DNA of 54,716 bases, taken from IMG/VR virus record IMGVR_UViG_3300032050_000032; one strand, written 5' to 3'. The position numbers were made by a program, and so were the translations under genes. This DNA comes from an uncultured virus (IMG/VR IMGVR_UViG_3300032050_000032). Its lineage: Duplodnaviria > Heunggongvirae > Uroviricota > Caudoviricetes. Numbering within the stretch: position 1 is the first letter of the stretch; each line of letters opens with the position of its first letter. Positions 16,513 through 53,587 of the stretch are shown here, piece by piece. Under the pieces are notes generated by a model. It searched no databases, had not been told where the DNA came from, and worked only from the letters and a program-made list of their open reading frames with translations.

Positions 16513-16517
16513 ATTTT

Positions 16518-16750: not shown

Positions 16751-16885
16751 ATTTTTATTTCAAAGAACCTTTTCCTTTTCTCACGGGAGTAGGACACTCA
16801 TCTCTAACTTTCCTACCCCCGTTGTTTGTTCTACAAAGATATGTAATCATTTTTAATCTACCAAATCTTTTTTTTGTTTTTTTTG

Positions 16886-16969
16886 TACTCGGAGCGGGAG
16901 TCGAACCCGCACGGGCAAATGCCCACAGGATTTTAAGTCCGGCGTGTCTACCTGTTCCACCATCCGAGC
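16886..16969 (-). tRNA. tRNA-Leu(TAA)
   Basis: Class II cloverleaf, loop CTTAAAA. Confidence 0.93.
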
Positions 16970-17056
16970 AAAAATTTACCAATATGTCAAAGAACCTCTT
17001 CTTGTTTGTTTTACAAAGATATGTATAATTTTTCACATACACAACACCCTGAAAAC

Positions 17057-17086
17057 AAAAATCCCACCTCTTTTGGAGATGGGATT
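17057..17086 (-). terminator. Attenuator terminator of tRNA array 1
   Basis: AATCCCATCTC-CAAAA-GAGGTGGGATT-TTT; its 5' arm is complementary to the leader sequence TGGAGATGG (17116-17124). Confidence 0.8.
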
Positions 17087-17110
17087 CAAATTTTATTATA
17101 TAATAATTTA

Positions 17111-17185
17111 TCACACCATCTCCATACAGAAAGTATCCTCAGCTATCGCCAATCCTCTTAAAGATATGATATGTAAATTTTTCAT
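17111..17185 (-). CDS. Leader peptide 1 (MKNLHIISLRGLAIAEDTFCMEMV), putative tRNA-sensing attenuator
   Basis: 24-codon ORF translated by hand; codons match array-1 tRNAs; last codons carry the antiterminator strand. Confidence 0.75.
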   Translation of the reverse strand: MKNLHIISLRGLAIAEDTFCMEMV

Positions 17186-17245
17186 TTGCGTTTTTATTTG
17201 TTTTGTTATAAATATATGATACTTTTCAAAAGTGTCAAGTTTTAT

Positions 17246-17566
17246 TTAAAAATCTTCACCTTCATCACCAAGAACCTCATAAAGGTAATCCTCATAATTC
17301 AATGAAATATAGTCTGCTAATACCGTGGACAAGTCATCTTGAAAGTCACCCATAATATCTTTGGCCAAAGTCATAGCCTTTTTTCCCATAGTTGCATCAT
17401 CATAATCACCAAGATCGTAAAGAGATTCCCTAACCTCCTTAAACACATCATCCAATGTAATGGATATTCTCATACCATCCATTTTATCTTCTTCGTTATC
17501 TTCTTTAATAACTCGTCTAACAATCCTTGTTAAATCCCCTTCAGTTAATTTAGTTACTCTTTTCAT
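17246..17566 (-). CDS. LTE-leader family protein
   Basis: MKRVTKLTEGDLTRIVRRVIKE. Confidence 0.85.
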   Translation of the reverse strand: MKRVTKLTEGDLTRIVRRVIKEDNEEDKMDGMRISITLDDVFKEVRESLYDLGDYDDATMGKKAMTLAKDIMGDFQDDLSTVLADYISLNYEDYLYEVLGDEGEDF

Positions 17567-17588
17567 ATTTTTTCTTTTATTTATTTAT

Positions 17589-17939
17589 TTATTTTTCAAT
17601 ATCACCCCAAACCTCATCGTATGTTGGGTTTTTTATGTATTCTTCTTCAGATCCAATACTATACTTCAAATCACTAATATAGTTCTCCAATTCCTCAATC
17701 ACCTGATTAATCCTTTCAATTCTCTGTCTTGGACTAATCTTTTTAGATAATCTATATTCTTGAGATAGATATCCTCTTTCACCTGGTTCACTTGTAATAT
17801 TAGATTCATCATAACCAAAGAAAACATCATCTAACTTTTTTCTAAGTTCCAATTCTCTTTTGTGTTCTCTATTTTCTTTAATTGTTCGTTTTACAATTCT
17901 TTGTAAATCTGATTCTGTTAGTCTAATTATTTTTTTCAT
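17589..17939 (-). CDS. LTE-leader family protein
   Basis: MKKIIRLTESDLQRIVKRTIKE. Confidence 0.85.
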   Translation of the reverse strand: MKKIIRLTESDLQRIVKRTIKENREHKRELELRKKLDDVFFGYDESNITSEPGERGYLSQEYRLSKKISPRQRIERINQVIEELENYISDLKYSIGSEEEYIKNPTYDEVWGDIEK

Positions 17940-17951
17940 AAGTTTTGTTTT

Positions 17952-18476
17952 TTATTTATGTTTGGTTAAAAAATCAAGTAATGATTTCAATCGGTCATCA
18001 GTTAGTACTGCCGTACCCTGTGATCCATTTTTTATCCAAGTTTTAAATTCGTATCTATTCCGTGTTGGGTTAAAGATAAAATTGTATTTGTCGAGTCCCG
18101 TATCCATTAATACGTATTCATTATCACTAACTCTACCTTCCTTTCCAACGGGAGGATCATAATCCTCACCACTTTCTTTACCAACTATTGCGTAGTTAAG
18201 TTCATCAAGAATCGCGTCAACAGGAATTTCCTCACCTTCTTCATTATAAAACATCCCTTCTGTCCCATACTCAGAATAATCAACAAGAGGAGTTCCCTCT
18301 TCAACAAGCCCATTATACATTTCAATAATATCTTCAGGAGATACAGAATTACCAAGTTCCATTCTAACCCCATCATATTTTCTTGGGATACGAATCATGC
18401 TCTCATCATTTTCATTAATCACTCGTCTAACAATCCTTGTTAAGTCTGATTCTGTTAGTCTAATTACTTTTTTCAT
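17952..18476 (-). CDS. LTE-leader family protein
   Basis: MKKVIRLTESDLTRIVRRVINE. Confidence 0.85.
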   Translation of the reverse strand: MKKVIRLTESDLTRIVRRVINENDESMIRIPRKYDGVRMELGNSVSPEDIIEMYNGLVEEGTPLVDYSEYGTEGMFYNEEGEEIPVDAILDELNYAIVGKESGEDYDPPVGKEGRVSDNEYVLMDTGLDKYNFIFNPTRNRYEFKTWIKNGSQGTAVLTDDRLKSLLDFLTKHK

Positions 18477-18492
18477 AGGTTTTGTTTTTTAT

Positions 18493-18792
18493 TTATAATG
18501 ATCCAAGATCATCGAATTTTTTAGCGTTTACATATGCATTATCCGCATATTTCAAAAAGTTATCACCATAGATTTTTGCCAATCTATTCATAATTAACTG
18601 AGGATTTTTTCTCATATATCTTAATATATCATTTGGTATTTGTTCATCATATTTACCAAACATATTTTGTAATTGTCTTTCACGAGGAATTTTATTAACA
18701 TGAGGTTCAATTGAGAACTCGTCTTCTTCTTCCTTAATGATTCTTTCAATCATATTTATTAATTCTTTCTCAGATAGTTTTATATTTTTCAT
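18493..18792 (-). CDS. LTE-leader family protein
   Basis: MKNIKLSEKELINMIERIIKE. Confidence 0.85.
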   Translation of the reverse strand: MKNIKLSEKELINMIERIIKEEEDEFSIEPHVNKIPRERQLQNMFGKYDEQIPNDILRYMRKNPQLIMNRLAKIYGDNFLKYADNAYVNAKKFDDLGSL

Positions 18793-18802
18793 ATTTTTTT
18801 AT

Positions 18803-19177
18803 TTAAAATAAAGATTCATCTGATATGTACGAATCATTTGATCCATATTCCTCATCCCATTGATTTAACAATTTTTTTGCCATTCTTCTAACCATTCTTT
18901 CATCCATATTTGATGTGATTGATGGACCATATCCATAAATTTCTGGATTACCGTTATTATCAAGAAGATAAACAACAATTACATCTTTTTCATTTTCTTC
19001 ATCAGGAAACATTGTTGCAACACCTGCCTTTAATCCCGATTCCGATTCAATCCCTTCAATGTCCTTAATCTCACCAAAATCACTAATTGTACCCAATTCG
19101 GCAATTTCACCTTCGGTGATTATGTTTCTAATCAAGTTAACTAATTCTGATTCGGTTAGTCTTATTACTTTTTTCAT
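18803..19177 (-). CDS. LTE-leader family protein
   Basis: MKKVIRLTESELVNLIRNIITE. Confidence 0.85.
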   Translation of the reverse strand: MKKVIRLTESELVNLIRNIITEGEIAELGTISDFGEIKDIEGIESESGLKAGVATMFPDEENEKDVIVVYLLDNNGNPEIYGYGPSITSNMDERMVRRMAKKLLNQWDEEYGSNDSYISDESLF

Positions 19178-19188
19178 ATTAATAAATA

Positions 19189-21021
19189 TTACGCTAATTT
19201 AGTTCCTGCAATACCTTTAAACGGCCAATCAGGAGTAGTTTCTAATTTTGTATATAATTTACCCCAATTTGTTTTCAAATTATCAATTGATCCTTCAGGA
19301 GAATATTGTTTAGATGTTCTATTGAGGTAAACTTTATCAAACATTCTATAAAATTTATTTAGGTAATCTCTTACATCACCATATAAATCATCTTTGTTTA
19401 TTGTTTTATTTTCATATTCACCATCTTCATTTCTTCTTAAACTTAATACAGGTTCTTCAGTAGTTCCTTGATTGTTAATTTCGTTAACAATCTTAGGGTA
19501 ATCCGTCTGTAATCTTGTTAATATATTTTGATATACATCATCAGGAAGTGGTGATTGTAATTTTTTAGAGGCTTCTGCCCTTGGGTTAAATAATGGTGTC
19601 AATTGAGTTCCTAAATATAATATCAAGTTAAACATATCTTGATTTAGAATATCTAACCTATCTAACAATACGGCTTTTTGATCCAATTTTAATTTTTTTC
19701 TTTTCCCTGTATTTGGATCAATTTCTTCTTCAGGTTTTTCACCAGCCGATCTCATTGTTGATATTTTTTCTTGTTTTAATACCCCAACATAACTCATGGC
19801 ATTAGGAACTGTTGAGTCGGTACCCAACTCTAACTTAGTGTCCCCACAAGCGTCTAATCTTAACAGTTTACCTTGAATAATATTTGGTTTACCGTCAAAT
19901 ATAGGTTCGTTAACACCTGGTTTAGTAATTGTGACATTTGGGATGTCTTTATGTGCCGCAGTTGTACTCGCAATCATCCATATATCAATATAACCGTTTC
20001 CATTAGCAACAATACTTGCCGATTGTTCTGAAGTTATTTCAAATGAATCAGAACGACTACCACCAACATCACCTGCAGGTTTTAATTTACCATAACCGTA
20101 AGAATAAGTTCCATCACCATTTTTTAAATAACCATATCCAGGATTTAACCATTTTGGTCCAAATATTGGTGAAGAATCTGCTTTTGGGATACCTCTACTT
20201 GAATTTGAGTTATTTAAATTAGCCGTCATCCCACCAACACTATTATATAATAATGTGCTGTTGGCAAACATAAAGAATTCCGCATTTTGACAATTATGTG
20301 ACTCAACCCAAACTCTAATTTTTAATCCTGTTGCACATTTAGAATCAACAGTTTTTTTGACTGTACTTTTATTTACCTCAATTACAACCCTAAAGTATTG
20401 TTCACTATTATACTTTTTCTTTAATTCGTTAACTTGAGAATGTAAAGGATCTTTTGTATCACCAAGTATTTTCATATAGTTAGTTGTACAAACTGACCTT
20501 GATTGTTCTTTAGTTGAATTTGCGGGACAAAATACACTACCAATCCAAGGAGTCGTTCCAATTTTTTTATCTTCAGTTATCGTAAAATTTGTGTTAATCC
20601 CTTCAGATTTCCAAGAATCAAAAATTGGGGTTATGTATTTTTTTAGTGTATTTAATCTTGCATCATTTAAATAATTTGGATCAACTCTTTTTCCACCTTC
20701 TTGATTATCCGTGTTTGGTATTTGAGATTCACCACTTTCTAATTTAACACTAACAACATAACCCGTAGGATTTTTTTTCAAAAATTCCTTAATATTATTT
20801 AAACCATCTTTTAAAGTTGTGTCAACATCCCAATTATATGTTGTTCCATTTGGTGATGTATATGAGAATTTTGGATTATAATATCCTGGAGCAAAATTAA
20901 TAGTTTTATCTAATTTAAGTGTTTCTGTTGATTTTGCAGGTACCGGATTAGCCTCCTTAAGTATTCCATAAAGATTTAGGATGCGTTTTTTTTCATCTTC
21001 CGTAATTAAAATTTTACCCAT
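19189..21021 (-). CDS. Large hypothetical protein with ITE leader
   Basis: MGKILITEDEKKRILNLYGILKE, 610 aa. Confidence 0.8.
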   Translation of the reverse strand: MGKILITEDEKKRILNLYGILKEANPVPAKSTETLKLDKTINFAPGYYNPKFSYTSPNGTTYNWDVDTTLKDGLNNIKEFLKKNPTGYVVSVKLESGESQIPNTDNQEGGKRVDPNYLNDARLNTLKKYITPIFDSWKSEGINTNFTITEDKKIGTTPWIGSVFCPANSTKEQSRSVCTTNYMKILGDTKDPLHSQVNELKKKYNSEQYFRVVIEVNKSTVKKTVDSKCATGLKIRVWVESHNCQNAEFFMFANSTLLYNSVGGMTANLNNSNSSRGIPKADSSPIFGPKWLNPGYGYLKNGDGTYSYGYGKLKPAGDVGGSRSDSFEITSEQSASIVANGNGYIDIWMIASTTAAHKDIPNVTITKPGVNEPIFDGKPNIIQGKLLRLDACGDTKLELGTDSTVPNAMSYVGVLKQEKISTMRSAGEKPEEEIDPNTGKRKKLKLDQKAVLLDRLDILNQDMFNLILYLGTQLTPLFNPRAEASKKLQSPLPDDVYQNILTRLQTDYPKIVNEINNQGTTEEPVLSLRRNEDGEYENKTINKDDLYGDVRDYLNKFYRMFDKVYLNRTSKQYSPEGSIDNLKTNWGKLYTKLETTPDWPFKGIAGTKLA

Positions 21022-21084
21022 AAATATAAATATAAATATGTATGAAACAAAAAAAACACCCGTTAGGGTGCTTTTTAAAATAGA

Positions 21085-21149
21085 TTAGTACAAGGACTCG
21101 AACCTGTTATTCTCCCATTGAGTGGGTGCGTTCTCCTACACGCTCACTA
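21085..21149 (-). pseudogene. Degenerate tRNA-like remnant
   Basis: CAGG-TTCGAGT-CCT T arm retained; acceptor stem poorly paired. Confidence 0.35.
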
Positions 21150-21155
21150 TATCCA

Positions 21156-21425
21156 TTATTTTACCTCAATAATTGTGTAGGTACCTTCCATTACACCCCA
21201 AGAAGATGATTCGTGGAATGTATACACCTGACAAGAATCTTGTGGTGTCATCGGACGAGTCAAATACCAAATCTGACTTTCCTTCCAAGTTACATTTATC
21301 AACTTTTGTCCCCTTGGTAATGTGAGAGTTCCATCCCCACCCCAATTCTTTACTCGGTTATTTTCAGTACAAGAAGACACTCCAAATAGGGATACTAATC
21401 CCAAAATAAACAACACTTTTTTCAT
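21156..21425 (-). CDS. Small lipoprotein
   Basis: Signal peptide ending in lipobox VSSC. Confidence 0.75.
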   Translation of the reverse strand: MKKVLFILGLVSLFGVSSCTENNRVKNWGGDGTLTLPRGQKLINVTWKESQIWYLTRPMTPQDSCQVYTFHESSSWGVMEGTYTIIEVK

Positions 21426-21443
21426 ATAATTTAATTAATTTTT

Positions 21444-21728
21444 TTACAATTCCTGAACTTGTTTCATAATATTAGTTACTTCTCCAGAAGAAAGATATCC
21501 CATAACATCATTTGTAATTGGTGTATTATAAGTCAAGTCCCACTCATTTTCATCACCAAAGATAACCGCAAGTTCCCATTGGTTATTATTGTTTGTATAT
21601 GATCCGTATCGTCCATTGATTTTAAACCTAACAACAGATACTCCATATCCATTAGGGAAAAATATCAACCCGTGAAGTCCATCACCAACTGGATGAGATT
21701 TAAAATCTATATCATTAAATGTTTTCAT
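21444..21728 (-). CDS. Hypothetical phage protein
   Basis: F.NGYGVSV ... V.GYL pattern common in phage ORFs. Confidence 0.75.
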   Translation of the reverse strand: MKTFNDIDFKSHPVGDGLHGLIFFPNGYGVSVVRFKINGRYGSYTNNNNQWELAVIFGDENEWDLTYNTPITNDVMGYLSSGEVTNIMKQVQEL

Positions 21729-21920
21729 AATCAATTAAATAAAAGTTTTTTGTGTTTTGTTTTTCTAGTATAAAGATTCTTAGGTGTTTCAACTCTTGAT
21801 ACAAATCTCCCATCAAAGAAACCTGCCTCAATCTGATCCTTTCTTACCTGTGTTCTTTTTGTCTTATGTTGATCATATGCTTTCATCTCATTTGTTTTTT
21901 ACAAAGATATAAAAATTTAT

Positions 21921-22163
21921 TTACCACTTTCTTTTTTTATCAAGTTTTTTTGATTTTTGTTCTTCCATCATATTGGCATACTCTATTTTGGTGAGTCGTT
22001 TAAATGAATCATCATCAACACCCCCGAATCTTTTTTTCGCGCTTGATTTTGCTTGGATGAGGTTTTTACCCCATACAATGTTCGATCCCACCACTTCATT
22101 GTTTTTAACCATATTAAAAACATATAAGAACTCCCCTTCTTTGTTCGTCATCAACTTTTCCAT
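21921..22163 (-). CDS. Hypothetical protein
   Basis: Start moved to MEKLMT; the longer call overlaps tRNA-Leu. Confidence 0.6.
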   Translation of the reverse strand: MEKLMTNKEGEFLYVFNMVKNNEVVGSNIVWGKNLIQAKSSAKKRFGGVDDDSFKRLTKIEYANMMEEQKSKKLDKKRKW

Positions 22164-22181
22164 TTTTTTATTTTTTGTTTG

Positions 22182-22262
22182 TACCCCCGGAGAGACTCGA
22201 ACTCTCACACCACTTGGCATCAGATCCTAAATCTGACGTGTCTACCATTCCACCACGGAGGC
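22182..22262 (-). tRNA. tRNA-Leu(TAG)
   Basis: Class II cloverleaf, loop TTTAGGA. Confidence 0.93.
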
Positions 22263-22270
22263 ATTTATTG

Positions 22271-22343
22271 AGCTCAGGGAGGGATTCGAACCCCCGTACC
22301 AAGGTTTTGCAGACCTGGGCCTAAACCACTCGACCACCTGAGC
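22271..22343 (-). tRNA. tRNA-Cys(GCA)
   Basis: Loop CTGCAAA, U73. Confidence 0.92.
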
Positions 22344-22345
22344 AA

Positions 22346-22801
22346 TTAACGACAGTGGTGATCTGCCGCTCTTGTTGCAATTTGATTATCGGGTTTAATA
22401 TTTGATTTATACCCTAATGATGTTGCCCACCCAACAACTGGTTGAACCAATTTTGAACTAAAGTATTTTTCTTCACTATTGTAGTCCAAATCAATTTCAA
22501 CTTGTACCTTCACCTTTTGAGTTAACCATTCAGCAACTTCAATTGAATAATCGGCTTCATTCCATAACCTTGTCCATTTGTCTTTAATCTTTTTTACCTT
22601 TTGTTTATGTAGGATATAGTGGACACCTCTATTTCCGTATCTGTACGCAATTACAGTAACATAAACGGTACTTCTTCTGTGATTCTGAGAGTCAGTTCCT
22701 ATGTGTATCTCAACCCAAGGACATTCTTTTAAAATGTTTAAGGTGTGGTTTACCACATCAGGAATCGCCTCACCATTAACTGTTCTAAATACTCTATTCA
22801 T
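22346..22801 (-). CDS. RNase H-like YkuK/DUF458 family protein
   Basis: IGTDSQ, RL.NEA..S, E.D.D.N, A..AAD motifs. Confidence 0.8.
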   Translation of the reverse strand: MNRVFRTVNGEAIPDVVNHTLNILKECPWVEIHIGTDSQNHRRSTVYVTVIAYRYGNRGVHYILHKQKVKKIKDKWTRLWNEADYSIEVAEWLTQKVKVQVEIDLDYNSEEKYFSSKLVQPVVGWATSLGYKSNIKPDNQIATRAADHHCR

Positions 22802-22817
22802 TATTTCTATTTATTTG

Positions 22818-22890
22818 TGGACAGAGAGGGTTTCGAACCCCCGACGCTCGGCTCTTCAGGCCGACGCTCTACCAACTGAGCTACCTGTCC
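22818..22890 (-). tRNA. tRNA-Phe(GAA)
   Basis: Loop CTGAAGA. Confidence 0.93.
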
Positions 22891-23324
22891 TCATTAATAT
22901 TTTTTAATTTACAACCTTCAAAATAATGTAGTTCCCTATGACAATTAGAACATAATGGTATACATTTTCTGATTTCTTCTTTTATTTTAGTTAATGAAAA
23001 CCCTGATTTTATCATTTTTGAAATTTCATATTGTTTATCTTTTGTGTGATGAAAATCAATGACATACCATCTATTGTCTCCACAATTCAAACACTTTAAA
23101 AATTTTTTATATTTTTTAATAAATTCTTTATTAAATTTAATCTGTTCATTTGACCTAGTTCTAATTTTTTTTTGCCTATCGGGGTTAGTTTTATAATTTT
23201 CCTTATCTATTTCTGAAATACAAACTTTACACTTACTCCTCTTTTTATTTAGTTTTTTATTTTTCCAACTAAACTCCTCAATATTTTTAATTAAACCACA
23301 TCCTGTACATTTTCTATTTTCCAT
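22881..23324 (-). CDS. HNH endonuclease with N-terminal Zn finger, inside the tRNA array
   Basis: CxxC...CxxC, CxxC..DFHH...LCSNCHRELH; stop codon lies inside tRNA-Phe. Confidence 0.8.
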   Translation of the reverse strand: MENRKCTGCGLIKNIEEFSWKNKKLNKKRSKCKVCISEIDKENYKTNPDRQKKIRTRSNEQIKFNKEFIKKYKKFLKCLNCGDNRWYVIDFHHTKDKQYEISKMIKSGFSLTKIKEEIRKCIPLCSNCHRELHYFEGCKLKNINEDR

Positions 23325-23393
23325 AATAATTCTTTTTATATAAATATCATTAAAAATAAAAAAGGACTGAAAGTACCAAAAATTTTTCGGTTC

Positions 23394-23894
23394 TTATTTA
23401 ATTTCAAACGCCGCCCTCATAGGTCGTTTGATTTTTACCGCATCTTCATAGTTACCAATCACAACACCATCTTTAATTGTAAATGCGTGTCCTTTAACTA
23501 ATACGAAGAATGTACCTTTAGGGTTTTTCTTTACAAATGTACCAACAGTCATTTGTCTTTTAACTTGTTCACCTTTCACTTTTACATCATATGAAAGTGA
23601 ATATGGATAAGCAAAACTACTACACTTTGTCCCAATAGGTGTAATCTTCTTACTGTTAACTTTAATTAAACTCTCAGATAGTTTAACCATTTTAGATGCA
23701 GTAAAATATGTACCCTTTCTTGGTTTTCTTTTAAACTCTTCCGCAACATACTTATGGGCATAATCATAAGAAACATCAAATGCCGAAGCAAACGCCCTAA
23801 CAACACAATCGTTTGTTTCGGTTCTTGCAGTTGCAGAATCAGTATAACCTTTAATCGCTTTTCCTGTAGATTCGTATGGTAATTTGTTTTTCAT
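23394..23894 (-). CDS. Hypothetical phage protein (NDCVVRA...H motif)
   Basis: Conserved-looking Cys/His pair; own TATCTTTA promoter-like site. Confidence 0.7.
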   Translation of the reverse strand: MKNKLPYESTGKAIKGYTDSATARTETNDCVVRAFASAFDVSYDYAHKYVAEEFKRKPRKGTYFTASKMVKLSESLIKVNSKKITPIGTKCSSFAYPYSLSYDVKVKGEQVKRQMTVGTFVKKNPKGTFFVLVKGHAFTIKDGVVIGNYEDAVKIKRPMRAAFEIK

Positions 23895-23938
23895 ACTGTA
23901 AAGATACAAAAAGTTTTTTAATTGGCAAAATTAAAAAT

Positions 23939-24012
23939 TGGCACACAGTGTAGGGATCGAACCTACCCGGCGAGGTTTTGGAGACCTGCCCGACACCCTG
24001 TCTGTACTGTGT
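23939..24012 (-). tRNA. tRNA-Trp(CCA), short D arm
   Basis: Loop CTCCAAA, G73 and encoded CCA. Confidence 0.85.
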
Positions 24013-24018
24013 ATGTTG

Positions 24019-24091
24019 TACCCTCGGAGAGATTCAAACTCCCATCTCACGATCCGTAGTCGTGTGTTCTGTTCGATTGAACTACAAAGGC
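24019..24091 (-). tRNA. tRNA-Arg(ACG)
   Basis: Loop CTACGGA. Confidence 0.9.
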
Positions 24092-24225
24092 ATAATAGTT
24101 TTGGTCAACCACTCGCATCCCACCGATTTCTTGAATCAAACTTTTTGTAGTCCAAACGATTATTAATCTCCTACGACTCATTCTCAACTCACTCGCCTAA
24201 GCCTTGTCCGTTGTAAACTATTTTG

Positions 24226-24299
24226 TGTGTATGATGGGTTACGATCCCATTACCTTCGGTTCCACAAACCGACGCTCTCCCGATTGAGCTACATACACC
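24226..24299 (-). tRNA. tRNA-His(GTG)
   Basis: Loop TTGTGGA, G-1 present, A rather than C at position 73. Confidence 0.88.
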
Positions 24300-24306
24300 A
24301 TATAAG

Positions 24307-24374
24307 TCCCGTATGTTGGACTTGAACCAACCTAAAGTCGGATATGAGCCAACTTTGATCCCTGATCATACGGG
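24307..24374 (-). tRNA. tRNA-Met(CAT), truncated D arm
   Basis: CCCGTAT/ATACGGG acceptor, GTTGG-CTCATAT-CCGAC, 68 nt. Confidence 0.7.
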
Positions 24375-24380
24375 TTGTTG

Positions 24381-24464
24381 CGGAAGACATTGGAATCGAA
24401 CCAAATACCCGAAGGTACATCTCGCTTAGCAGGCGGACCCTATCGCCATCAAGGTTTATCTTCC
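24381..24464 (-). tRNA. tRNA-Ser(GCT)
   Basis: Class II, loop CTGCTAA. Confidence 0.88.
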
Positions 24465-24468
24465 GTAG

Positions 24469-24541
24469 TGCTCATCACCGGTTACGATCCGATTCTCTCC
24501 ACGATATCAGCGTGGTGCTTTCCCAATTAAGCTAGATGAGC
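24469..24541 (-). tRNA. tRNA-Ile(GAT)
   Basis: Loop CTGATAT. Confidence 0.9.
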
Positions 24542-24706
24542 TGGTGCGTATTTAGGGGTATTTATTAACCACCCCCTCAGCTCGCCAGCATCTCGGTGGT
24601 TGATACTTTAGTCGTGGGGAACCCACCTTCCACTTCTTACTAGATTCTTGTGGTCTACTTACTATAGTTCATACCGTTACCACTGGGGAACCCAACATTG
24701 TATCTT

Positions 24707-24782
24707 TGGCGGACAAGGTAGGGTACGATCCTACAACCTATCGGTTAACAGCCGATTGCTCTACCAATTGAGCTACTTGTCC
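24707..24782 (-). tRNA. tRNA-Asn(GTT)
   Basis: Loop CTGTTAA, encoded CCA. Confidence 0.93.
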
Positions 24783-24790
24783 ATTTGTTG

Positions 24791-24873
24791 TGGGAGAGGA
24801 GGGACTCGAACCCCCAAGGTCTTACGACGACAGATTTACAGTCTGCTGAGCCAACCAATTGCTCAACTCTCCC
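24791..24873 (-). tRNA. tRNA-Tyr(GTA)
   Basis: Class II, loop CTGTAAA. Confidence 0.93.
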
Positions 24874-24878
24874 TTTTG

Positions 24879-24952
24879 TACACCCTACAGGGATCGAACC
24901 TGTGACCTGTTGTATGTAAAACAACCGCTACTACCATCTGAGCTAAAGGTGT
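24879..24952 (-). tRNA. tRNA-Val(TAC)
   Basis: Loop TTTACAT. Confidence 0.9.
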
Positions 24953-25028
24953 GTGTTTAGAGAATTTTAATCTTTATATCATTGGCGTATGCACCATCGC
25001 CCTATTTGATTATTATTCTCTAAATCTG

Positions 25029-25103
25029 TGATCCCGGTGAGGCTCGAACTCACGACCCCTCCATTAAAAGTGGAGTGCTCTAAACCAACTGAGCTACGAG
25101 ATC
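25029..25103 (-). tRNA. tRNA-Lys(TTT)
   Basis: Loop CTTTTAA. Confidence 0.93.
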
Positions 25104-25121
25104 TTCTGTTTGTCGTACTTG

Positions 25122-25310
25122 TCACTTTCCATAGGACATTAATTTTTGATTGTTTAGGTTTATTTCTGTTTCTACTCTTTTTAGTTCTTCACTTAAATCC
25201 CCACGGTAGGATGGATCTTTACTAATCTTAACAAGACTAAGATAATAATGGTTTAAACCACTCAACTTACCTTTAATTGCAATTATTTCACATTCTTCGT
25301 TTGTTACCAT
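25122..25310 (-). CDS. Small hypothetical protein inside the tRNA array
   Basis: 62-aa ORF filling the gap between tRNA-Pro and tRNA-Lys. Confidence 0.6.
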   Translation of the reverse strand: MVTNEECEIIAIKGKLSGLNHYYLSLVKISKDPSYRGDLSEELKRVETEINLNNQKLMSYGK

Positions 25311-25325
25311 TTTTTAAAGTTTTAG

Positions 25326-25398
25326 TAGGGTAGACCGGACTCGAACCGACATCGTCCACATCCCAAATGTGGTGACTTACCAATTAGTCAACTACCCT
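25326..25398 (-). tRNA. tRNA-Pro(TGG)
   Basis: Loop TTTGGGA. Confidence 0.9.
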
Positions 25399-25404
25399 AT
25401 ATTG

Positions 25405-25488
25405 AGGAAGAGTGAGGTGTCGATCCCCATACCTTTCGGTACCTGCCGTTTTCAAGACGGAGTCACAAGCCGTTGTGATTACCCTTCC
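25405..25488 (-). tRNA. tRNA-Ser(TGA)
   Basis: Class II, loop CTTGAAA. Confidence 0.88.
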
Positions 25489-25492
25489 ATTG

Positions 25493-25564
25493 TTGTTCCC
25501 CAAGGGTTCGAACCTCGATTCCATGGACCAAAACCATGTGTCCTGCCGATTAGACGAGGGAACA
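25493..25564 (-). tRNA. tRNA-Gln(TTG)
   Basis: Loop TTTTGGT, U1-A72. Confidence 0.92.
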
Positions 25565-25606
25565 TTAATGAAGCCAATATGTCAAAGAACTCTTTCTTTT
25601 TGTTTG

Positions 25607-25678
25607 AGGTTTCTATCAGGTTCGAACTGATGACTCTGGGTTACAAATCCAGGGTATTACCAACTATACTAAGAAACC
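25607..25678 (-). tRNA. tRNA-Thr(TGT)
   Basis: Loop TTTGTAA. Confidence 0.88.
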
Positions 25679-45800: not shown

Positions 45801-46064
45801 ATGAAAAAATTTTTTAATCAGTTGTTTTGTGACAACAATTCTATTAACGAAAAATCTGTAGTAGGGTTTATCGCATTTTTAATGATGTGTTTATTTGCTG
45901 GTGCAGATATTATCACAGGTTTTATGGGAGCACCATTGGTGGTTAATGAATTTATCTTTAATTCATTCTTAATTTTAGTATTAGGTTCATTTGCTATTGG
46001 TTCTGTTGATAAATTTATCAATAAGAAACACGGATCAGAGGACGAAGAGACACCTGAAGGATAA
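45801..46064 (+). CDS. Two-TM membrane protein
   Basis: Start MKKFFNQ; two hydrophobic helices; terminator at about 46086-46111. Confidence 0.7.
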   Translation: MKKFFNQLFCDNNSINEKSVVGFIAFLMMCLFAGADIITGFMGAPLVVNEFIFNSFLILVLGSFAIGSVDKFINKKHGSEDEETPEG

Positions 46065-46721: not shown

Positions 46722-46973
46722 TTAGTGTTTTTTATGTGATTTTCCTAATAAATCTTGTAAATTTTTTAAATTTTCACTAAAATCTTTAGGAAAATTAAGA
46801 TTTTGTCTTAAAATATCACTATCAAAGGGAAAATTTTGATTTTTTGTGTAATTATTCATTTTTTTTACCATAGAAAACAGTTCTCTACCGTATTTTCTCC
46901 ACCAAATGAACAAACCTATTGAAAATACACTTAAAACAAGTGTAAAAACGATTAAAACCACTATTAATACCAT
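46722..46973 (-). CDS. Small single-TM protein
   Basis: 83 aa, N-terminal TM. Confidence 0.5.
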   Translation of the reverse strand: MVLIVVLIVFTLVLSVFSIGLFIWWRKYGRELFSMVKKMNNYTKNQNFPFDSDILRQNLNFPKDFSENLKNLQDLLGKSHKKH

Positions 46974-47023
46974 ATTTTTTAAATTTATAGGGTAATTATA
47001 GTGGTTTTAACCTAAATTGTCAA

Positions 47024-47851
47024 TTATTTTAATAAACTATAGTACTTTTTGAACTTTGTGAGTCTATCCTCAAGTCCATGAGTTCCTCCATTCACCCTTT
47101 TTGTTACTTTTGTTACAACATCGTCTGATGATCCTAAATCACAGATACTCCACAACTTATTTGAATCGAAAAAGAACGCTGCAGACGCCAATGGGTACTT
47201 ATTTGCCACTAAATCAGGGGTTGTAACACAATCTTCACCAATAAACTTAGTAAAACTTACATAATTTGCCTTTCCAGTTAATTGAATGTATCCTCTTCCT
47301 CTAAATTTATACCCTTCTTTGGTTGTTTCGTCACCATTTCCCATTCTTCCACCATAAACACGGGACGCAATCTTTTCAGGTTGTTTTGCATATGACTCAG
47401 CAAGGGTTCCAGGGAAGTATTTCCCAAATGTTTTTTTTAATCCGTCAGCAGAGTAGTTTAAATTCTCCGAAACTGCCTTAAAATTACCTGATTCATGAGC
47501 ACATTGTGCTAAAAAGTGAGCCAACCTCAAATTGTTTGTGATATTAAACTTCTTTGCGGTTTCTGCAATCTGTGCAATTACCGTATCAGGAATAGTTCCT
47601 TTAAGTTTCTCAATGTTTAATCCCTCTACGGGTGTAATAACTACATTTTCTTTAACTACCTGTGGTGATTCACCAAATAATTTAGACCAAGTTGCATCGC
47701 CAACAATACCATCGTCTTTTAATCCATTTGCTTTTTGCCAAGCTTTAACTGCTGCTTCAGTTTTAGGTCCAAATTTACCTATAGTTTCTACACCTAATTT
47801 TTCTTGGAGTTTTTTTACATCGTCCCCTTCCGATCCCACTTTTAATAACAT
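47024..47851 (-). CDS. Endolysin: PG-binding domain + GH19 (chitinase-like) muramidase
   Basis: LK.GS.G.DV..LQ..L PGBD; HFLAQ..HES, FRGRG.IQLTG..NY, T..VNGG..G..DR. Confidence 0.92.
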   Translation of the reverse strand: MLLKVGSEGDDVKKLQEKLGVETIGKFGPKTEAAVKAWQKANGLKDDGIVGDATWSKLFGESPQVVKENVVITPVEGLNIEKLKGTIPDTVIAQIAETAKKFNITNNLRLAHFLAQCAHESGNFKAVSENLNYSADGLKKTFGKYFPGTLAESYAKQPEKIASRVYGGRMGNGDETTKEGYKFRGRGYIQLTGKANYVSFTKFIGEDCVTTPDLVANKYPLASAAFFFDSNKLWSICDLGSSDDVVTKVTKRVNGGTHGLEDRLTKFKKYYSLLK

Positions 47852-47861
47852 AATTTTTGTT

Positions 47862-48539
47862 TTATTGTTTATTTTCTGTTGCGTATTTAATACCCATAAT
47901 GGTTCCTACGATTGAAAAAGCGTTTGTTAAAAGAATACCAAATATATTTGACCAAGCGGCACTAATAACTTGAGTGTCTTTACCCATTACAAGTGTAAAA
48001 ACATAAACTCCAGTTGTAACAACCCCAACACCCATAATAATCCAAAGAGCAACCCTAACAATTGTTGATATTAACTCAGTTTGATTTCTTTTTTGTAATA
48101 TATCCAAGTCATTTAGGGCATTTGTTTTCGCTTCTTCAGCCTGTATTCTTGCTTTTTCAGAATTAATCATTTCTCTTTGTAGATCTTGTTGTATTTTTTC
48201 GTTTTCTTCTCTCCAATCAATTAACTCCTCATTTTGTGCTTCAATTTTTACCCTTTGTTCTTCAGTTTCTTTTAAAGTTGACTGAAGATCTTCCATCATT
48301 TTTTCGTTTTTTTCATTTAAAATTACAAGTTCCTCATTTTGTTTTTGTATTTTTTTTGTCATCTCAAGACGTTTTCTTCTTTTGTCTCCGTCTTTTGTTT
48401 CACAATCCTTTAAATACTTTTTAAAGTCCTCATCATCTTCAGTATTGATAAGTTTAGTAATATTACCTTCAAGACCTATACCTTTTTTAAGGTATAAGTC
48501 CATCAAAAGTTTTTTAGTATTACTATCTATTTTTATCAT
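47862..48539 (-). CDS. Coiled-coil protein with two C-terminal TM helices
   Basis: Long heptad region then two TMs; start overlaps the receiver stop codon. Confidence 0.75.
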   Translation of the reverse strand: MIKIDSNTKKLLMDLYLKKGIGLEGNITKLINTEDDEDFKKYLKDCETKDGDKRRKRLEMTKKIQKQNEELVILNEKNEKMMEDLQSTLKETEEQRVKIEAQNEELIDWREENEKIQQDLQREMINSEKARIQAEEAKTNALNDLDILQKRNQTELISTIVRVALWIIMGVGVVTTGVYVFTLVMGKDTQVISAAWSNIFGILLTNAFSIVGTIMGIKYATENKQ

Positions 48540-48973
48540 TTGTAAACTTTAAATGGTAAAGTTCTATTTTTATACCCATCATAGTCTTTTCTGAACTCTT
48601 CTAAACGAGGTTCAATGTCGTCAGATTTAATAATCCAAAACTGAGCACCTGCCTGAATCGCCTTTGCTTGTTCTTCAGGTTCATTACTTGATGATATTAT
48701 TCCAATAACCACATGATTACCATACTCAAAATTAATTTTTCTAATTAATTCTATACCATCAAAAGAACTACCTATAATATTTAAATCAACAAACACACAT
48801 TCAGGTTTATCATTATCGTCTCCACTTTGGAACCATTTTTGGAATAGTTTTGCAGCTTCGTCAGAACTATTTAATGCGTTTAAAGACAAACTTATGTCAA
48901 GTAATGAACAAGCGTCTTCAAATACTAAATGGAATAAATCTTCATCATCCACCAATAAAATTGAATCAATCAT
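48536..48973 (-). CDS. Stand-alone response-regulator receiver (CheY-like)
   Basis: LLVDD, FVDLN (phospho-Asp), ISSS, AGA..WI.K. Confidence 0.9.
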   Translation of the reverse strand: MIDSILLVDDEDLFHLVFEDACSLLDISLSLNALNSSDEAAKLFQKWFQSGDDNDKPECVFVDLNIIGSSFDGIELIRKINFEYGNHVVIGIISSSNEPEEQAKAIQAGAQFWIIKSDDIEPRLEEFRKDYDGYKNRTLPFKVYK

Positions 48974-48990
48974 TTTTTCTTTTTTGTTTT

Positions 48991-51114
48991 TTATTTTATT
49001 TTTATTTTCATTTTTGTTCCTATTTCATTTTTCTCACAAGTGATATTAAACCCGTGTTCCTCTAAAATTGCAACACAAATATTTAACCCCAAACCTGTAC
49101 CTGACTCTGTTTGTCCTTCCTTTCTTGTATATGGTTCACGTAGGTGATTAAAATCTTCTTGTGTAATTCCTCTACCGTTGTCTTGGATATAGATATTATT
49201 TTTATCTGAATAAATTTTAACAAACTTAGTATCTGAATCATTATACTTTAAACCATTTCTAATTAGGTTATCTACTGCAGTACAAAATAACGCCTCGTTT
49301 ACTTCTATTGTTGGTAAGTCCTCAATAATAACTTGACTACTGTATGCCGTTGATGACAAATAATCATTTAGAATGGTTTTTAAATTACATTCTGATTTAT
49401 TTAAAACAACGTCTTTTTTAACTAAATTAGTAAATTCATAAACACCTTTATATACTTTTTGAGAATGTTTTAACCCTTCTTTAATCATTCTAATAGGTGC
49501 CTCAATTTTTAATGATGTAATGTCTTCAGAACTTAATCTTCTTTCTAACGAACTCAATCCTCTTGGCATATATGTATTTATACCTGAATGCATATCGTGT
49601 CTTAATATCTTTGCTGCGTGTTCTAAATAAGTATTTTTCTTTTCAATCTCTTTCTTTTGTTCATGAGAATTAGTGATATCAGTGGCGATTTTCATAATAC
49701 GATAAATTTTACCGTCTAAACCAAGAATAGGGTTATAAGTGGCTTGTAGATACACTAAAGATCCATCTTTTTTAACTCTAGTAATTTCACCAGTAAATAA
49801 TATACCATCATTTAATTTTTTCCAAAAAAGATAATATTCCTCACTTTTTGAATGTTCCTCATCTATAAATATTCTATGGTGTTTTCCGACTATTTCATCA
49901 ATTGATGAATATCCCATAGTATTTAAAAACAAGTCGTTAGCAAAAATAATATTCCCTTCTAAATCAAACTCAATAACTGCGTTAGATTTATTTATTGCGT
50001 TCATTCTATTACGAATTTCAACTTCTTTTTTCTTAAGATCTGTAACATCTTGTCTGATTGATGAAAACCCTTCTAATTTACCATCTTTATCAAATCTTGC
50101 CCTAATATATGTATCAACATAATATAGTTCTCCTGACTTTCCTTTATTGGTAACAACATCATTCCATATTTCACCTTTCATTACTTTTTCATACATCTTA
50201 CCCCAATATCCTTCAGGTTGTAAATCAGAATTAACAATACTATGATCTTTACCTTTAACTTCATCTAACAACCAACCTGAAACTTCCTCAAATTTTTTAT
50301 TAACATATGTGATTTTACCGTATTTATCGGCAACTGAAATAATTGACGATTCGTTTAAAAAGTTTTCAGTTTCCTTATTTCTTCTTAATAAATCGTTTCC
50401 TTCTTTAACTGAATAAGCAAAAGTATAAAGGGATGATAATAATTGGGCGAAATTAACTTCAGCATTATCCCAATCTCTAAGGGTTAATGACTCAATACAA
50501 ATAACACCTATCGTTTCTCCACGGTAAACAATAGGGACATCTAACATAGATTTTACACCAAGTGGTTTTAAATATGTCTCAGTAAAACAAGAAGTTGCGG
50601 TATGTGACTCAGCATCATTTGCAATAATGATTGGGTTAATTAATAACGCCAAAAAGTACGGTTGGAAATCTTTTTTGCGTAGTGTTATATTTTGATACCA
50701 ATTATCTTCAGATTTGATATATAATTGTTCACATATTATTGCCGTTTTATCTTCATTGTATAACCATATTGAACATCTATCAGCACTTATTGATTCTGTA
50801 ACTTCTTTAGTTAGTACTTTCGCACCTTCGGTTGTATTACCCTCATAAAATAAAGGATTGTGTGACTGTGATATAAGTGTTTTATTTAATTCTTTAATAT
50901 ACTTATTATGGTTTTTACCGATTCTATTTCTTTTTACATATTCTAAAACAACAACCGCGAAAAATGGTAAAAATGCTAAAAAACAAGCGTAACCAAAATA
51001 ACCAACCTCATCAATATATTTTATAAAATTAAAAACAACTAATGATTGTGTTGTAAAAAAAGCAATCATAATGATTACCGAAATAAATAAAGATATTTTT
51101 GAAAGTTTTGTCAT
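48991..51114 (-). CDS. Sensor histidine kinase (2TM-GAF-PAS-PAS-HisKA-HATPase)
   Basis: GAF (LDVPI...GVICIE), two PAS/PAC domains, H-box RHDM, N-box NLIRNGLKY, DNGRGI, GTGLGL. Confidence 0.92.
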   Translation of the reverse strand: MTKLSKISLFISVIIMIAFFTTQSLVVFNFIKYIDEVGYFGYACFLAFLPFFAVVVLEYVKRNRIGKNHNKYIKELNKTLISQSHNPLFYEGNTTEGAKVLTKEVTESISADRCSIWLYNEDKTAIICEQLYIKSEDNWYQNITLRKKDFQPYFLALLINPIIIANDAESHTATSCFTETYLKPLGVKSMLDVPIVYRGETIGVICIESLTLRDWDNAEVNFAQLLSSLYTFAYSVKEGNDLLRRNKETENFLNESSIISVADKYGKITYVNKKFEEVSGWLLDEVKGKDHSIVNSDLQPEGYWGKMYEKVMKGEIWNDVVTNKGKSGELYYVDTYIRARFDKDGKLEGFSSIRQDVTDLKKKEVEIRNRMNAINKSNAVIEFDLEGNIIFANDLFLNTMGYSSIDEIVGKHHRIFIDEEHSKSEEYYLFWKKLNDGILFTGEITRVKKDGSLVYLQATYNPILGLDGKIYRIMKIATDITNSHEQKKEIEKKNTYLEHAAKILRHDMHSGINTYMPRGLSSLERRLSSEDITSLKIEAPIRMIKEGLKHSQKVYKGVYEFTNLVKKDVVLNKSECNLKTILNDYLSSTAYSSQVIIEDLPTIEVNEALFCTAVDNLIRNGLKYNDSDTKFVKIYSDKNNIYIQDNGRGITQEDFNHLREPYTRKEGQTESGTGLGLNICVAILEEHGFNITCEKNEIGTKMKIKIK

Positions 51115-51235
51115 ATTAATAAATATCACAATCCAACATAAATAACTATTTACTTTTCTTTCCGATATAAAATTAAGAAAACAAATACACCCACTATTAC
51201 AATAGGTGTATATATTGCGGTATAAATTTCTAAAC

Positions 51236-53485
51236 TCATCTGATTACATTTACAAAACCGTTAATACTTCTTCTTTCATCAGTGTTTACCACACCAAAGT
51301 CCGCTTTCCAAGCATACATACCTTGTTGTACAGGGAAACCATTGTATGTCCCATCCCAAGTCTCATTAGGATTGTGACACTCCCATATCATTTCTCCCCA
51401 TCTATTAAAGATGTATAAATTAAATCGGTATTCATCAATACCCGCAAAATTAAACCCCCAACCTTGATTGTATTCATTTCCATCGGGTGTAAATGTATTT
51501 GGAATAAATGATAATACATCACTCTCTACGGTTAAAATTCTTGATGTGGTATCTGAACATCCAAGATTATCAATAACCGTTAAATAAACAGGGTATTGTC
51601 CTGTAACTCCTTCAGGGAATGTAATTGTTGGACTATCATAAGTACTTACCATTGGTGATCCATTTGGTGAGTACCAATACCAATCAACAATATTAGAGTA
51701 GGATTGATCCCGCATTAACACAGTTGTTTCAAAGAAGGTAGTTGGATTTGGTGAGATGTTAAATTGTGCGGTTGGTAATGGACGAGTTTCAACAATGTCA
51801 TCAAATGTTTGAGTATAAACACACCCATAATCAGAAGTAACCGACATTGTGATATCCCAAACACCAACTGAATCATATGTGTGAGTGATATTATCCGTTA
51901 ATAATGTTGTTGTGTCAGTATTATCATCAAACATAACAAAAGTACTAACCATATTAATAGATGGTGATGAGGTATTTACAAATGTAAAGTTACCAGGAAT
52001 ACATTGTACCGTATCAATAGGTGATATGGATGGTGTAATTGGTGTTGGGTATGTTAGATAAACATTAGAGTCTATTTGACAACCGTTAACATCCTGAATT
52101 GAGATTAAATAATTACCCCCCGATAAACCATTAATTGTGTCGTTAGACGATACATTATCAATAAAATAATTATATGGTTGAGTTCCCCCATTACCAACCA
52201 TAATTATTGATCCGTCATTTTCATCACAAGTAACATTAGACTCAATGATGTTATTAAAAATTACTTGTGTTGGTTGATTTATTGTAATGGAAGAATTACC
52301 TGTACATCCATTATCATCTGTAACTAAAACATCATACACTCCTACACATAAATTTATTGCGGTTTGTGTTGTTTGTCCATTAGACCATAAATAGGTAAAA
52401 TTTGGTGTACCATTTATTGGGGTTACAGTTGCGGTTCCATCACATCCTAAATAACATAATGGTTCGGTAAATGATGTTATGGATGTTTGTATATTTGGTG
52501 GTCCAGGTAAAACAAATACAGTATCAGGTCCAAAACCACCAACAACTGAATTACAAATGTTCCAACCTGCATTACAAATGGGATAAACAAAACGACAAGT
52601 GTAGTTTGCACCTTGTGGGGGTGGTGTTACATTAATCGTTGGACCTGTACCTATTGGATTTGGGTTACCAACTTGGTACCAAGTAAGTACAGGATTAACT
52701 ACAGGTCCTGATGGTGTAAATCTAACTCCCTCATTTTGTGTTGACCATTGGTTATTATTTCTAATTGATGTTGAAACGGGTGGTTGTACTAAAACAGATT
52801 GTGTTCCATTCGCATTATGTAATCCGTGAACCGCATTACCTGAGTTCCAAGACGCACAAATTGGTTTATTTAAAATATGAGTTTCAATTATATTTGTTGT
52901 TTCATAAATTTTAATTTGACTACTATATAATTGGCTTGTACACGAAAACATAGGTACTTGATAATACGATATAACAAGTCGTCTACACGGAGCCGTCCCG
53001 TATACCGCATATTTTATAGTACCACCAATTCCAGGATTAATGTCTTGCCAAGGACCCATTATACAATTCATAGGTGCCGATCCTGAACCATTAGGGATAG
53101 GAGTTGTTATCCAAGTGGAGTTTTGTCCCGCAGAAAATCCAACCCAATTGTTTGAACCAATGTAAAAGTTGGTATATGTTTGCCCAAAATAACAAAAGTT
53201 AAATCCTATCGGAATTGAGTTAGATATTGCATCATCACCTAAAAAAACTGAGTTACCATTGGTGTATGAGTCAGGAGAGTAAGCAATGTTACTAACACCA
53301 TAATTAGTTGTTTGATTTGGGTTGATTCCACCAACACCACATTGACTTAAATCAGCAGTTAATGTTGTTGAATTGATTCCGCAAGATAATAATTGATCAT
53401 TTCCGAGATACGGACAAAATTGTGTGAAAGATAATGATGTTGTTAACACCATTAATAAAGTTAAGATTAAATTTTTCATATTCAT
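51236..53485 (-). CDS. Secreted SprB-repeat/PKD protein with gliding-motility (CHU_C, T9SS type B) C-terminal domain
   Basis: Signal peptide; C.G.CDG...GT..Y.WS.G...L..G.Y.V.VTD.NGC repeats; IPN.FTPDG..N...IFNRWG...WDG. Confidence 0.88.
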   Translation of the reverse strand: MNMKNLILTLLMVLTTSLSFTQFCPYLGNDQLLSCGINSTTLTADLSQCGVGGINPNQTTNYGVSNIAYSPDSYTNGNSVFLGDDAISNSIPIGFNFCYFGQTYTNFYIGSNNWVGFSAGQNSTWITTPIPNGSGSAPMNCIMGPWQDINPGIGGTIKYAVYGTAPCRRLVISYYQVPMFSCTSQLYSSQIKIYETTNIIETHILNKPICASWNSGNAVHGLHNANGTQSVLVQPPVSTSIRNNNQWSTQNEGVRFTPSGPVVNPVLTWYQVGNPNPIGTGPTINVTPPPQGANYTCRFVYPICNAGWNICNSVVGGFGPDTVFVLPGPPNIQTSITSFTEPLCYLGCDGTATVTPINGTPNFTYLWSNGQTTQTAINLCVGVYDVLVTDDNGCTGNSSITINQPTQVIFNNIIESNVTCDENDGSIIMVGNGGTQPYNYFIDNVSSNDTINGLSGGNYLISIQDVNGCQIDSNVYLTYPTPITPSISPIDTVQCIPGNFTFVNTSSPSINMVSTFVMFDDNTDTTTLLTDNITHTYDSVGVWDITMSVTSDYGCVYTQTFDDIVETRPLPTAQFNISPNPTTFFETTVLMRDQSYSNIVDWYWYSPNGSPMVSTYDSPTITFPEGVTGQYPVYLTVIDNLGCSDTTSRILTVESDVLSFIPNTFTPDGNEYNQGWGFNFAGIDEYRFNLYIFNRWGEMIWECHNPNETWDGTYNGFPVQQGMYAWKADFGVVNTDERRSINGFVNVIR

Positions 53486-53587
53486 GTGATAAATATTATT
53501 AAGTTTTGTTTGTTTTCTTATCTGACGAACGCCTTTTAGCAAAAGAAGCCATTGTCTTATCATTTATGGTTATTATATTTTCAATAT

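Follow-up and report, generated by a model that had tools for sequence, protein, structure and literature searches.

A phage-borne kinase-receiver relay and its membrane hairpin protein beside an endolysin gene: a candidate route to the control of lysis

A block of four genes in an uncultured Caudoviricetes virus (IMG/VR record IMGVR_UViG_3300032050_000032) encodes a sensor histidine kinase, a single-domain receiver, a protein with a coiled coil and two transmembrane (TM) segments, here called the third protein, and an endolysin. The first three are called the trio below. The virus record with the block has 304,365 bases at 31% GC and is rated 100% complete; the window, that is the whole stretch of DNA that was analysed, has 54,716 nucleotides. 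The relay is borne by the phage, with all phosphorelay residues intact. We propose, with a probability of about 0.58, that this relay gates a membrane hairpin at the end of the third protein and that the hairpin regulates or forms the lysis hole, the sensing being done from the cytoplasm and probably concerning redox state.

The proposed mechanism has five steps. The membrane-anchored kinase would read cytoplasmic cues, likely the redox or energy state, through its GAF and two PAS domains, and autophosphorylate on His506. It would then phosphorylate Asp63 of the receiver, as the intact motifs and the fixed gene order suggest. The receiver is predicted, on three independent lines of support, to dock on the N-terminal module of the third-protein dimer, and we propose that the docking depends on phosphorylation. 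The coiled coil may relay the change to the two-TM hairpin, as it would from PAS or GAF in one-component fusions. Finally the hairpin, to judge from its gene context, would hold back or release hole formation and so time the release of the endolysin.

The relay and its membrane target

All four open reading frames (ORFs) are on the minus strand. There are 17 bp between the kinase and receiver genes, an overlap of 4 bp (ATGA) between the receiver and third-protein genes, and 10 bp between the latter and the endolysin gene, which bears out the tightly packed, co-directional block described in an earlier note on this DNA. The kinase is built as TM-TM-GAF-PAS-PAS-H-box-HATPase_c, where the first PAS domain (PAS1) is Aer/MmoS-like, the second (PAS2) is of a flavin type with His and Trp, and the H-box holds His506 within RHDMHSG. 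The earlier note had read TM-GAF-PAS-PAS; the GAF-PAS-PAS part stands, while the N-terminal TM segments are two in number (residues 9-27 and 39-57). Since these are joined by a loop of 11 residues, the GAF and both PAS domains would be cytoplasmic. All 37 kinase representatives have the H-box together with the N, G1 and G2 boxes, and RHDMHSG is found in 114 of 128 kinase sequences, the remaining 14 being 13 fragments and one RHDLHSG. The sensor parts vary (417-728 aa among the 37 representatives, often with two kinases) and the core is constant.

In the receiver, D9, D10, D63, S94 and K116 are invariant in 20 of 20 sequences and in 8 of 8 more distant rows, and helix alpha1 is nearly invariant. 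The closest solved receiver is a remote one (3ILH, E 3.7e-6). Only Response_reg PF00072 was matched on it, in agreement with the earlier claim that it has no DNA-binding domain. By their residues the kinase and receiver belong to the two-component class. Single-domain receivers include those of the CheY/Rcp1 type. The likeness to systems with such receivers lies in a kinase with H, N, G1 and G2 boxes, a receiver with acidic pocket, Ser and Lys, no output domain, and a predicted protein-protein output; the differences are that the present pair is phage-encoded, that its divergent H-box gave no match with Pfam HisKA, and that its target would be an undescribed helical module on a hairpin. Between the window and its relative L006, the one pair on which these values rest, dN/dS is 0.08 for the kinase, 0.05 for the receiver, 0.08 for the third gene, 0.09 for the lysin and 0.20 for the upstream gene.

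What would the receiver act on? The third protein gave no match in Pfam or NCBIfam. Its AlphaFold model has two short helices, a long helix running into TM1 and a returning TM2 helix (pLDDT 85, pTM 0.33); hydropathy and model place the soluble part at the N-terminus and in the cytoplasm, and the loop between the TM segments is short. The coiled coil varies in length among relatives. The hairpin is the most conserved part, with a column conservation of 0.93 over residues 196-220 and a dN/dS of 0.03 for residues 141-225, and one face of TM2 carries Asn, Thr, Ser and Gly. A second two-TM protein is encoded directly after the hairpin gene in 5 of 42 close loci (L139:1292-1816 and relatives).

The N-terminal module, residues 1-75, also forms the entire input of six HisKA kinases among the 150 matches listed from a profile search. 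In the bacterial-looking locus L199 such a module-HisKA kinase is the third gene of a kinase-receiver trio, and L199 is the only one of these kinases with known context because a metagenome scan with the module-kinase P0259 gave no match. Proteins in which the module is fused to FecCD, RNA polymerase or glycosyltransferase pieces (P0199, P0134, P0168) were set aside as likely chimeras, as was the single protein found when longer forms were sought with the hairpin alignment, which resembles a chimera of assembly. The module is not a phosphotransfer protein of the HPt or DHp kind, since it has no histidine in the window's third protein and none among its invariant columns. The module is a new signalling domain irrespective of the role of the hairpin. 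Judged by the family searches, the effector hairpin and the module are without a described family, and the kinase, receiver and PAS parts are ordinary.

Among 324 loci with a full module-hairpin gene (some contigs repeated), the receiver gene lies directly upstream in 320 of the 322 with enough upstream DNA; one receiver (L293) has no module gene after it. The complex was predicted from two copies of third-protein residues 1-110 and two receivers (2:2), with alignments made for this analysis. It scored 0.80 in three of three runs, against 0.16 for the best of three controls. At the score mark used, 116 of 157 solved complexes pass and 2 of 215 mismatched pairs do, counts that hold roughly for the 2:2 job. 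The runs share at least 93% of contacts, with a partner pLDDT of at least 88. On the module side the predicted interface consists of G25, N26, R54, K56, R57, L58, T61 and Q65, all invariant or nearly so. The gene order, the swapping of domains and the predicted complex thus speak for the protein-protein output onto the coiled-coil membrane protein that the earlier note had proposed.

Association with lysis genes and alternative readings

Is the hairpin connected with lysis? Locus L065 encodes a PAS-PAS-hairpin fusion ahead of a lysin-like gene. When a one-PAS fusion served as query, 80 loci were returned, of which 79 full matches together with L065 make a set of 80 loci and 60 distinct proteins. 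A same-strand endolysin lies within 800 bp in 78 of them, and the other two end at a contig edge. The endolysins are of the M15 (42), GH19 (29), GH24 (5) and PHROG-33083-like (2) types. A further small two-TM gene or a Pfam Phage_holin_4_1 gene is found within 2 kb in 74 of the 80 loci. Module, receiver and kinase are absent from all 80, and the receiver from all 16 whole fusion-carrying records (7 of them at least 90% complete), while a control found the receiver in 5 of 5. These fusions are a direct PAS-hairpin link in smaller phages. GAF-hairpin proteins occur at three loci, two of them beside GH19, with no receiver in the records. Thus the membrane part sits with lysis genes, in line with the tie to lysis drawn in the earlier note. 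On a midpoint-rooted tree of the hairpins, built on 85 columns and with many open forks, a single starred branch amid the trio hairpins contains the 18 fusion rows, and within it the lysin family next to the hairpin changes at least nine times. Because all fusion rows are in one branch, the fusion may have arisen once, yet it has stayed beside the lysin while lysins were replaced.

For the trio, linkage was counted for six lysin families. In the close set of 42 clusters, a lysin lies within 2.1 kb in 30 and at 4.3 kb in one, none is found in 7 with both 2-kb flanks, and 4 are too short; GH19 is the next gene in 16. In the distant set of 53 clusters, where lysin calls follow Pfam scans of 261 neighbour representatives, 13 are linked, 13 unlinked, 17 unlinked on one long flank and 10 short. 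All loci clustered at 90% identity give 130 clusters: 64 linked within 2 kb, 27 unlinked, 27 with one flank and 12 short. At 60% identity the 35 clusters comprise 16 linked, 12 unlinked, 6 with one flank and one short, and 8 clusters are mixed. Simple arithmetic with 2-5 lysin genes in 304 kb puts the chance of a lysin within 2 kb at 5-13%. The synteny survey that the earlier note had called for therefore does not find the trio usually unlinked from lysins (64 against 27). As for the trio-endolysin operon itself, it is present here, while the exact arrangement with GH19 next is, by gene order, a lineage trait, and 27 of 91 fully informative clusters are unlinked. In these sequences the link between trio and lysis is real and looser than that of the PAS-hairpin fusions. 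In 13 of 42 close loci a relative of the PHROG-33083-type lysin-like gene is no more than 2.1 kb away from the trio, and often it stands immediately ahead of the kinase in divergent orientation; the present virus has a second lysin-like gene, of the PHROG-33083 C-terminal type, outside the window (G000:C1:38991-39557, plus strand).

The four genes likely form one transcript, to judge from signals at their edges. The motif ATATTTAT, a candidate phage promoter element whose late character is inferred, is direction-biased in the genome: an ORF start follows 76 of 131 copies, against 13 of 131 for the reverse complement. In this block it precedes the kinase and not the other three genes, and in relatives it stands before the first kinase in 20 of 25 cases and before the lysin in 5 of 22, and before none of 20 receivers and none of 42 hairpin genes. 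A sigma-70-type promoter (47023-46995) opens the next gene and marks the 3' edge of the four-gene unit. Terminator-like hairpins are informative by position alone, with 4 observed in the region and 3.5 in shuffles. Among RNA runs the best match contained 5% of the sequence words, and four runs yielded mostly short pieces of relatives less than 90% alike, which show neither transcription nor one transcript.

Then which protein makes the hole? The endolysin has no hydrophobic N-terminal segment and so would need a holin. The third protein shares two TM segments and lysin adjacency with class II holins, yet at 225 aa it includes a long cytoplasmic part, and the adjacency is lacking in 27 of 130 clusters. 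Antiholins of the T4/ICP1 type have a periplasmic or signal-anchored domain, while the soluble part of the third protein is cytoplasmic. An 87-aa two-TM protein is another candidate holin. Its family has matches in 31 of the 80 PAS-hairpin loci; it matched no holin family, an Atlas lead to DUF2644 covers 38% of one cluster, and no homology to the hairpin was detected (hhalign probability 7%). Because another holin candidate is usually present, the hairpin is rather to be seen as a regulator of a separate small holin, which we consider the likelier role, than as a gated holin itself, which is the less likely though still a serious option. A 202-aa protein with an N-terminal TM segment and a soluble domain (11432-12040, minus strand) is possibly a further lysis component: in 7 of 42 close loci a relative is encoded downstream of the trio-lysin block, at a distance of up to 2.1 kb. 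Considered as a T4-T-like holin, it gave no Pfam or PDB match, and its single-sequence model reached a pLDDT of just 43.

Could the neighbourhood have another cause? The relay might end at a hairpin with a different envelope job, such as superinfection exclusion, control of membrane potential or respiration, or protection against premature collapse, and lysins would be near it since late envelope genes share promoters and travel together. We consider this alternative unlikely, although it is the strongest of the rivals, and several results weigh against our proposal. In 27 trio clusters there is no lysin within 2 kb on either side, and 27 more have none on their sole long flank; most high-GC clusters are unlinked, only 1 of 11 with GC of at least 45% being linked; in the distant set, linked clusters equal unlinked ones in number. 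Cluster counts are not independent events, as related phages share gene order, and the lysin profiles were built from the same loci, with weak PHROG-33083-like and SLT labels. All fusion hairpins belong to one branch. The two exceptions to the receiver-first gene order, L398 and L403, carry a module-hairpin gene, and their records, 14% and 74% complete, have no receiver. The hairpin matches no family of holins or antiholins in Pfam, NCBIfam or the holin PHROGs. Nor does any solved fold (PDB, E 0.001), and the sole viral-model match is an uncharacterised relative; such fold searches are weak tests because the model is mostly one long helix. Moreover, ATATTTAT also precedes many non-lysis genes, and a shorter form of it stands at 84 of 308 ORFs. 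Against another envelope job speaks the constant distance in the fusions, 78 of 80 loci having the lysin no more than 800 bp from the hairpin despite the changes of lysin family. The coding-strand neighbours in the close set point the same way, with GH19 in 26 of 42 loci, PHROG-33083-like genes in 13 and any other family in at most 8. Control of lysis by the hairpin is thus the reading that we prefer.

A second alternative takes the module-hairpin protein as a membrane-tethered sink or phosphatase for the receiver, whose true output would be a host signalling protein. The invariant Gln65 of the module, reminiscent of Gln-type phosphatases, would fit such a role. On the receiver side the predicted interface uses helix alpha1 and residues 118-121, and alpha1, usually variable, is the face that binds kinase DHp domains (PMC9981736). 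Because of this use of alpha1, the high score of the complex may partly come from a resemblance to DHp-receiver complexes of known structure. If the protein were no more than an anchor, the PAS-hairpin and GAF-hairpin proteins of receiver-less records would be left unexplained, and so would the fact that TM2 is the most conserved part. Receiver Asp63 is outside the confident interface residues, and in L199 the module sits as a kinase input. We regard this alternative as improbable.

That a host-derived two-component pair was acquired by chance and is functionally unlinked to the lysin, as the lineage-specific GH19-next arrangement and the bacterial-looking L199 might suggest, is very improbable in view of dN/dS values of 0.05-0.08 and of the distribution of the receiver, which had at least 585 matches in viral contigs while 185,579 prokaryote genomes yielded 5 loci. 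At least 472 further receiver matches are in metagenomes (the best 80 were kept from each search). The five prokaryote loci, found by exact patterns, comprise three that look viral, one too short and L199, and among genomes of the L199 order 1 of 401 gave a match. Proteins with the hairpin form 6,035 clusters. An annotated phage collection gave no match for the receiver or the hairpin protein. The same trio also occurs at four high-GC loci (60-66%; L289, L344, L345 and L198), three of which adjoin a type IB topoisomerase, with no lysin in the available DNA; a viral scan with the L198 receiver gave no match.

Sensory input and comparison with known systems

What does the relay sense? Among solved structures PAS1 is closest to MmoS, Aer and NifL, with the best alignments to MmoS 3EWK (E 8.8e-21) and Aer 8DIK. 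It keeps the equivalents of Aer G28, H53, M69, N85 and R115, residues taken from PMC9668731. PAS2 and all 72 PAS domains of the 60 distinct fusions keep His and Trp, the pair of residues named for one FAD cluster (PMC10468136). Counting the flavin-contact residues Trp, His and Asn of that source, of which at least two were looked for, PAS1 has His and Asn, and PAS2 has His and Trp without the Asn. One point speaks against a flavin in PAS1: Tyr takes the position of Aer W70 (44 of 45 matches), and Trp is named as the main FAD determinant in FAD-PAS domains (PMC10468136). The sequence likeness to the FAD-PAS redox sensors MmoS, Aer, NifL and AerC consists of the PAS1 alignment, the conserved contact residues and the His and Trp of PAS2 and the fusion PAS domains. 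A flavin redox input to the kinase PAS domains is most likely by these residues. The earlier note had spoken of an environment-sensed lysis; the kinase has no periplasmic sensor, and its sensory inputs are the cytoplasmic GAF and the flavin-type PAS domains. Two neighbours of the kinases may be mentioned here. In 8 of 42 close loci the two kinase genes flank a gene for a protein of some 200 aa that has a hydrophobic N-terminus and no family match (L035:2492-3124 and relatives). At L325:1722-2510 (plus strand) a bacteriorhodopsin-like gene (Pfam E 7.6e-18) is directly upstream of the trio kinase, a possible light input.

Signal-controlled lysis is known from the lysis inhibition of T4, with holin T and antiholin RI (PMC11413866), and of ICP1, with TeaA/ArrA (PMC7182436). 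The likeness is that a lytic phage would delay lysis upon a signal through a membrane-associated holin regulator. In T4 and ICP1, however, the signal is superinfection and a periplasmic antiholin binds the holin directly, whereas here cytoplasmic GAF and PAS domains would act through His-Asp transfer or PAS fusion. Searches of Pfam, PHROGs and the PDB gave no sequence match between the T4/ICP1 proteins and the hairpin system. Phage phiCDHM1 likewise has a histidine kinase, AgrC, in its genome, but as part of an AgrD/AgrB/AgrC quorum-sensing cassette of proposed host origin, while here kinase, receiver and effector are all phage-encoded; its abstract names no phage receiver or link to lysis (PMC3901668).

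In the literature searched, from which most subscription journals were outside coverage, neither a phage trio of kinase, receiver and effector nor a PAS-hairpin lysis gene was described. The available main text of a paper on huge phages with the bS21 gene has neither 'kinase' nor 'two-component', and its gene table has a single PAS chemotaxis-like annotation and a single GAF kinase-like one, neither of them commented on (PMC9723584). The main texts of PMC7162821 and PMC10914622 do not contain 'kinase', and the available part of PMC13524828 mentions kinases only for giant viruses.

We give even chances to the wider proposition that widespread aquatic phages own a signal-transduction control of lysis with a hairpin effector. 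Large phages would use the phosphorelay and module, and the inputs would be swappable: PAS, GAF or large N-terminal domains, with one or two kinases. In smaller phages a direct PAS or GAF fusion would drive the hairpin. If this is true, the time of lysis depends on the redox or energy state in the infected cell, and the system would be the first lysis switch gated by a phosphorelay or a flavin. By gauging the physiology of its host the virus would decide when to burst it, a route different from the superinfection response through a periplasmic antiholin in T4 and ICP1. With a hairpin family of this size, such a switch could be of importance for the mortality of bacteria in lakes and estuaries. 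The PAS-hairpin protein of 250 aa, its small neighbours and the lysin make a compact cassette that is testable in laboratory bacteria with no need to culture the phage.

Genome setting and neighbouring genes

The features of the block are collected in Table 1. Around the bS21 gene, which is on the reverse strand of the record, are genes that by eye we take to be those of terminase, portal, protease and capsid. Bacteroidetes-infecting huge phages encode bS21, and such a gene layout has been described for them (PMC9723584); the present record of 304 kb and 31% GC shares with them the reverse-strand bS21 gene and a T9SS-tail gene. Because of the gene layout and of the T9SS-tail gene adjoining the block, the host is probably Bacteroidota.

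Table 1. Positions in the window of the four genes, their parts and nearby elements
Feature	Position	Strand	Remarks
Candidate holin, 87-aa two-TM protein	45801-46064	+	Strand opposite to the block; about 1 kb from lysin
Sigma-70-type promoter consensus directly past lysin stop	46995-47023	-	12/12 matches; only such site among 59 listed
Endolysin, PG_binding_1 + Glyco_hydro_19	47024-47851	-	PHROG 181 endolysin, E 2.7e-66
Third protein, 225 aa: predicted receiver-binding module, long coiled coil, C-terminal two-TM hairpin	47862-48539	-	Hydropathy, model, conservation
C-terminal hairpin, residues 141-225 (TM 156-174, 199-217)	47862-48119	-	Conserved polar/small face on TM2
N-terminal module, residues about 1-75, predicted receiver-binding input	48315-48539	-	Heads HisKA kinases; predicted complex
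Single-domain receiver, 145 aa	48536-48973	-	Response_reg PF00072 alone
Sensor histidine kinase, 707 aa	48991-51114	-	ATG start; 712 aa if GTG at 51129
ATATTTAT motif, candidate phage (late) promoter element	51119-51126	-	12 nt before kinase ATG
Terminator-like hairpin closing upstream PKD/SprB/T9SS-tail gene	51185-51211	-	12 pairs, T tail

The T9SS-tail gene (51236-53563, minus strand) encodes a PKD/SprB-repeat protein with a T9SS type B sorting tail, which would use the host secretion system. On the other side of the block, an 83-aa gene with an N-terminal TM segment and no family match (46722-46973, minus strand) lies behind the perfect sigma-70 consensus. Just downstream of the trio, two related loci have a complete flagellin gene (L304:5432-6265, plus strand; also L341). 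The window also carries a tmRNA and 24 tRNA genes (8049-8451 and 13914-25678). The terminal stretches of the record (G000:C1:1-3269 and its final 3267 bases) are 80.5% identical, which may be a duplication or the result of ends assembled from two related strains.

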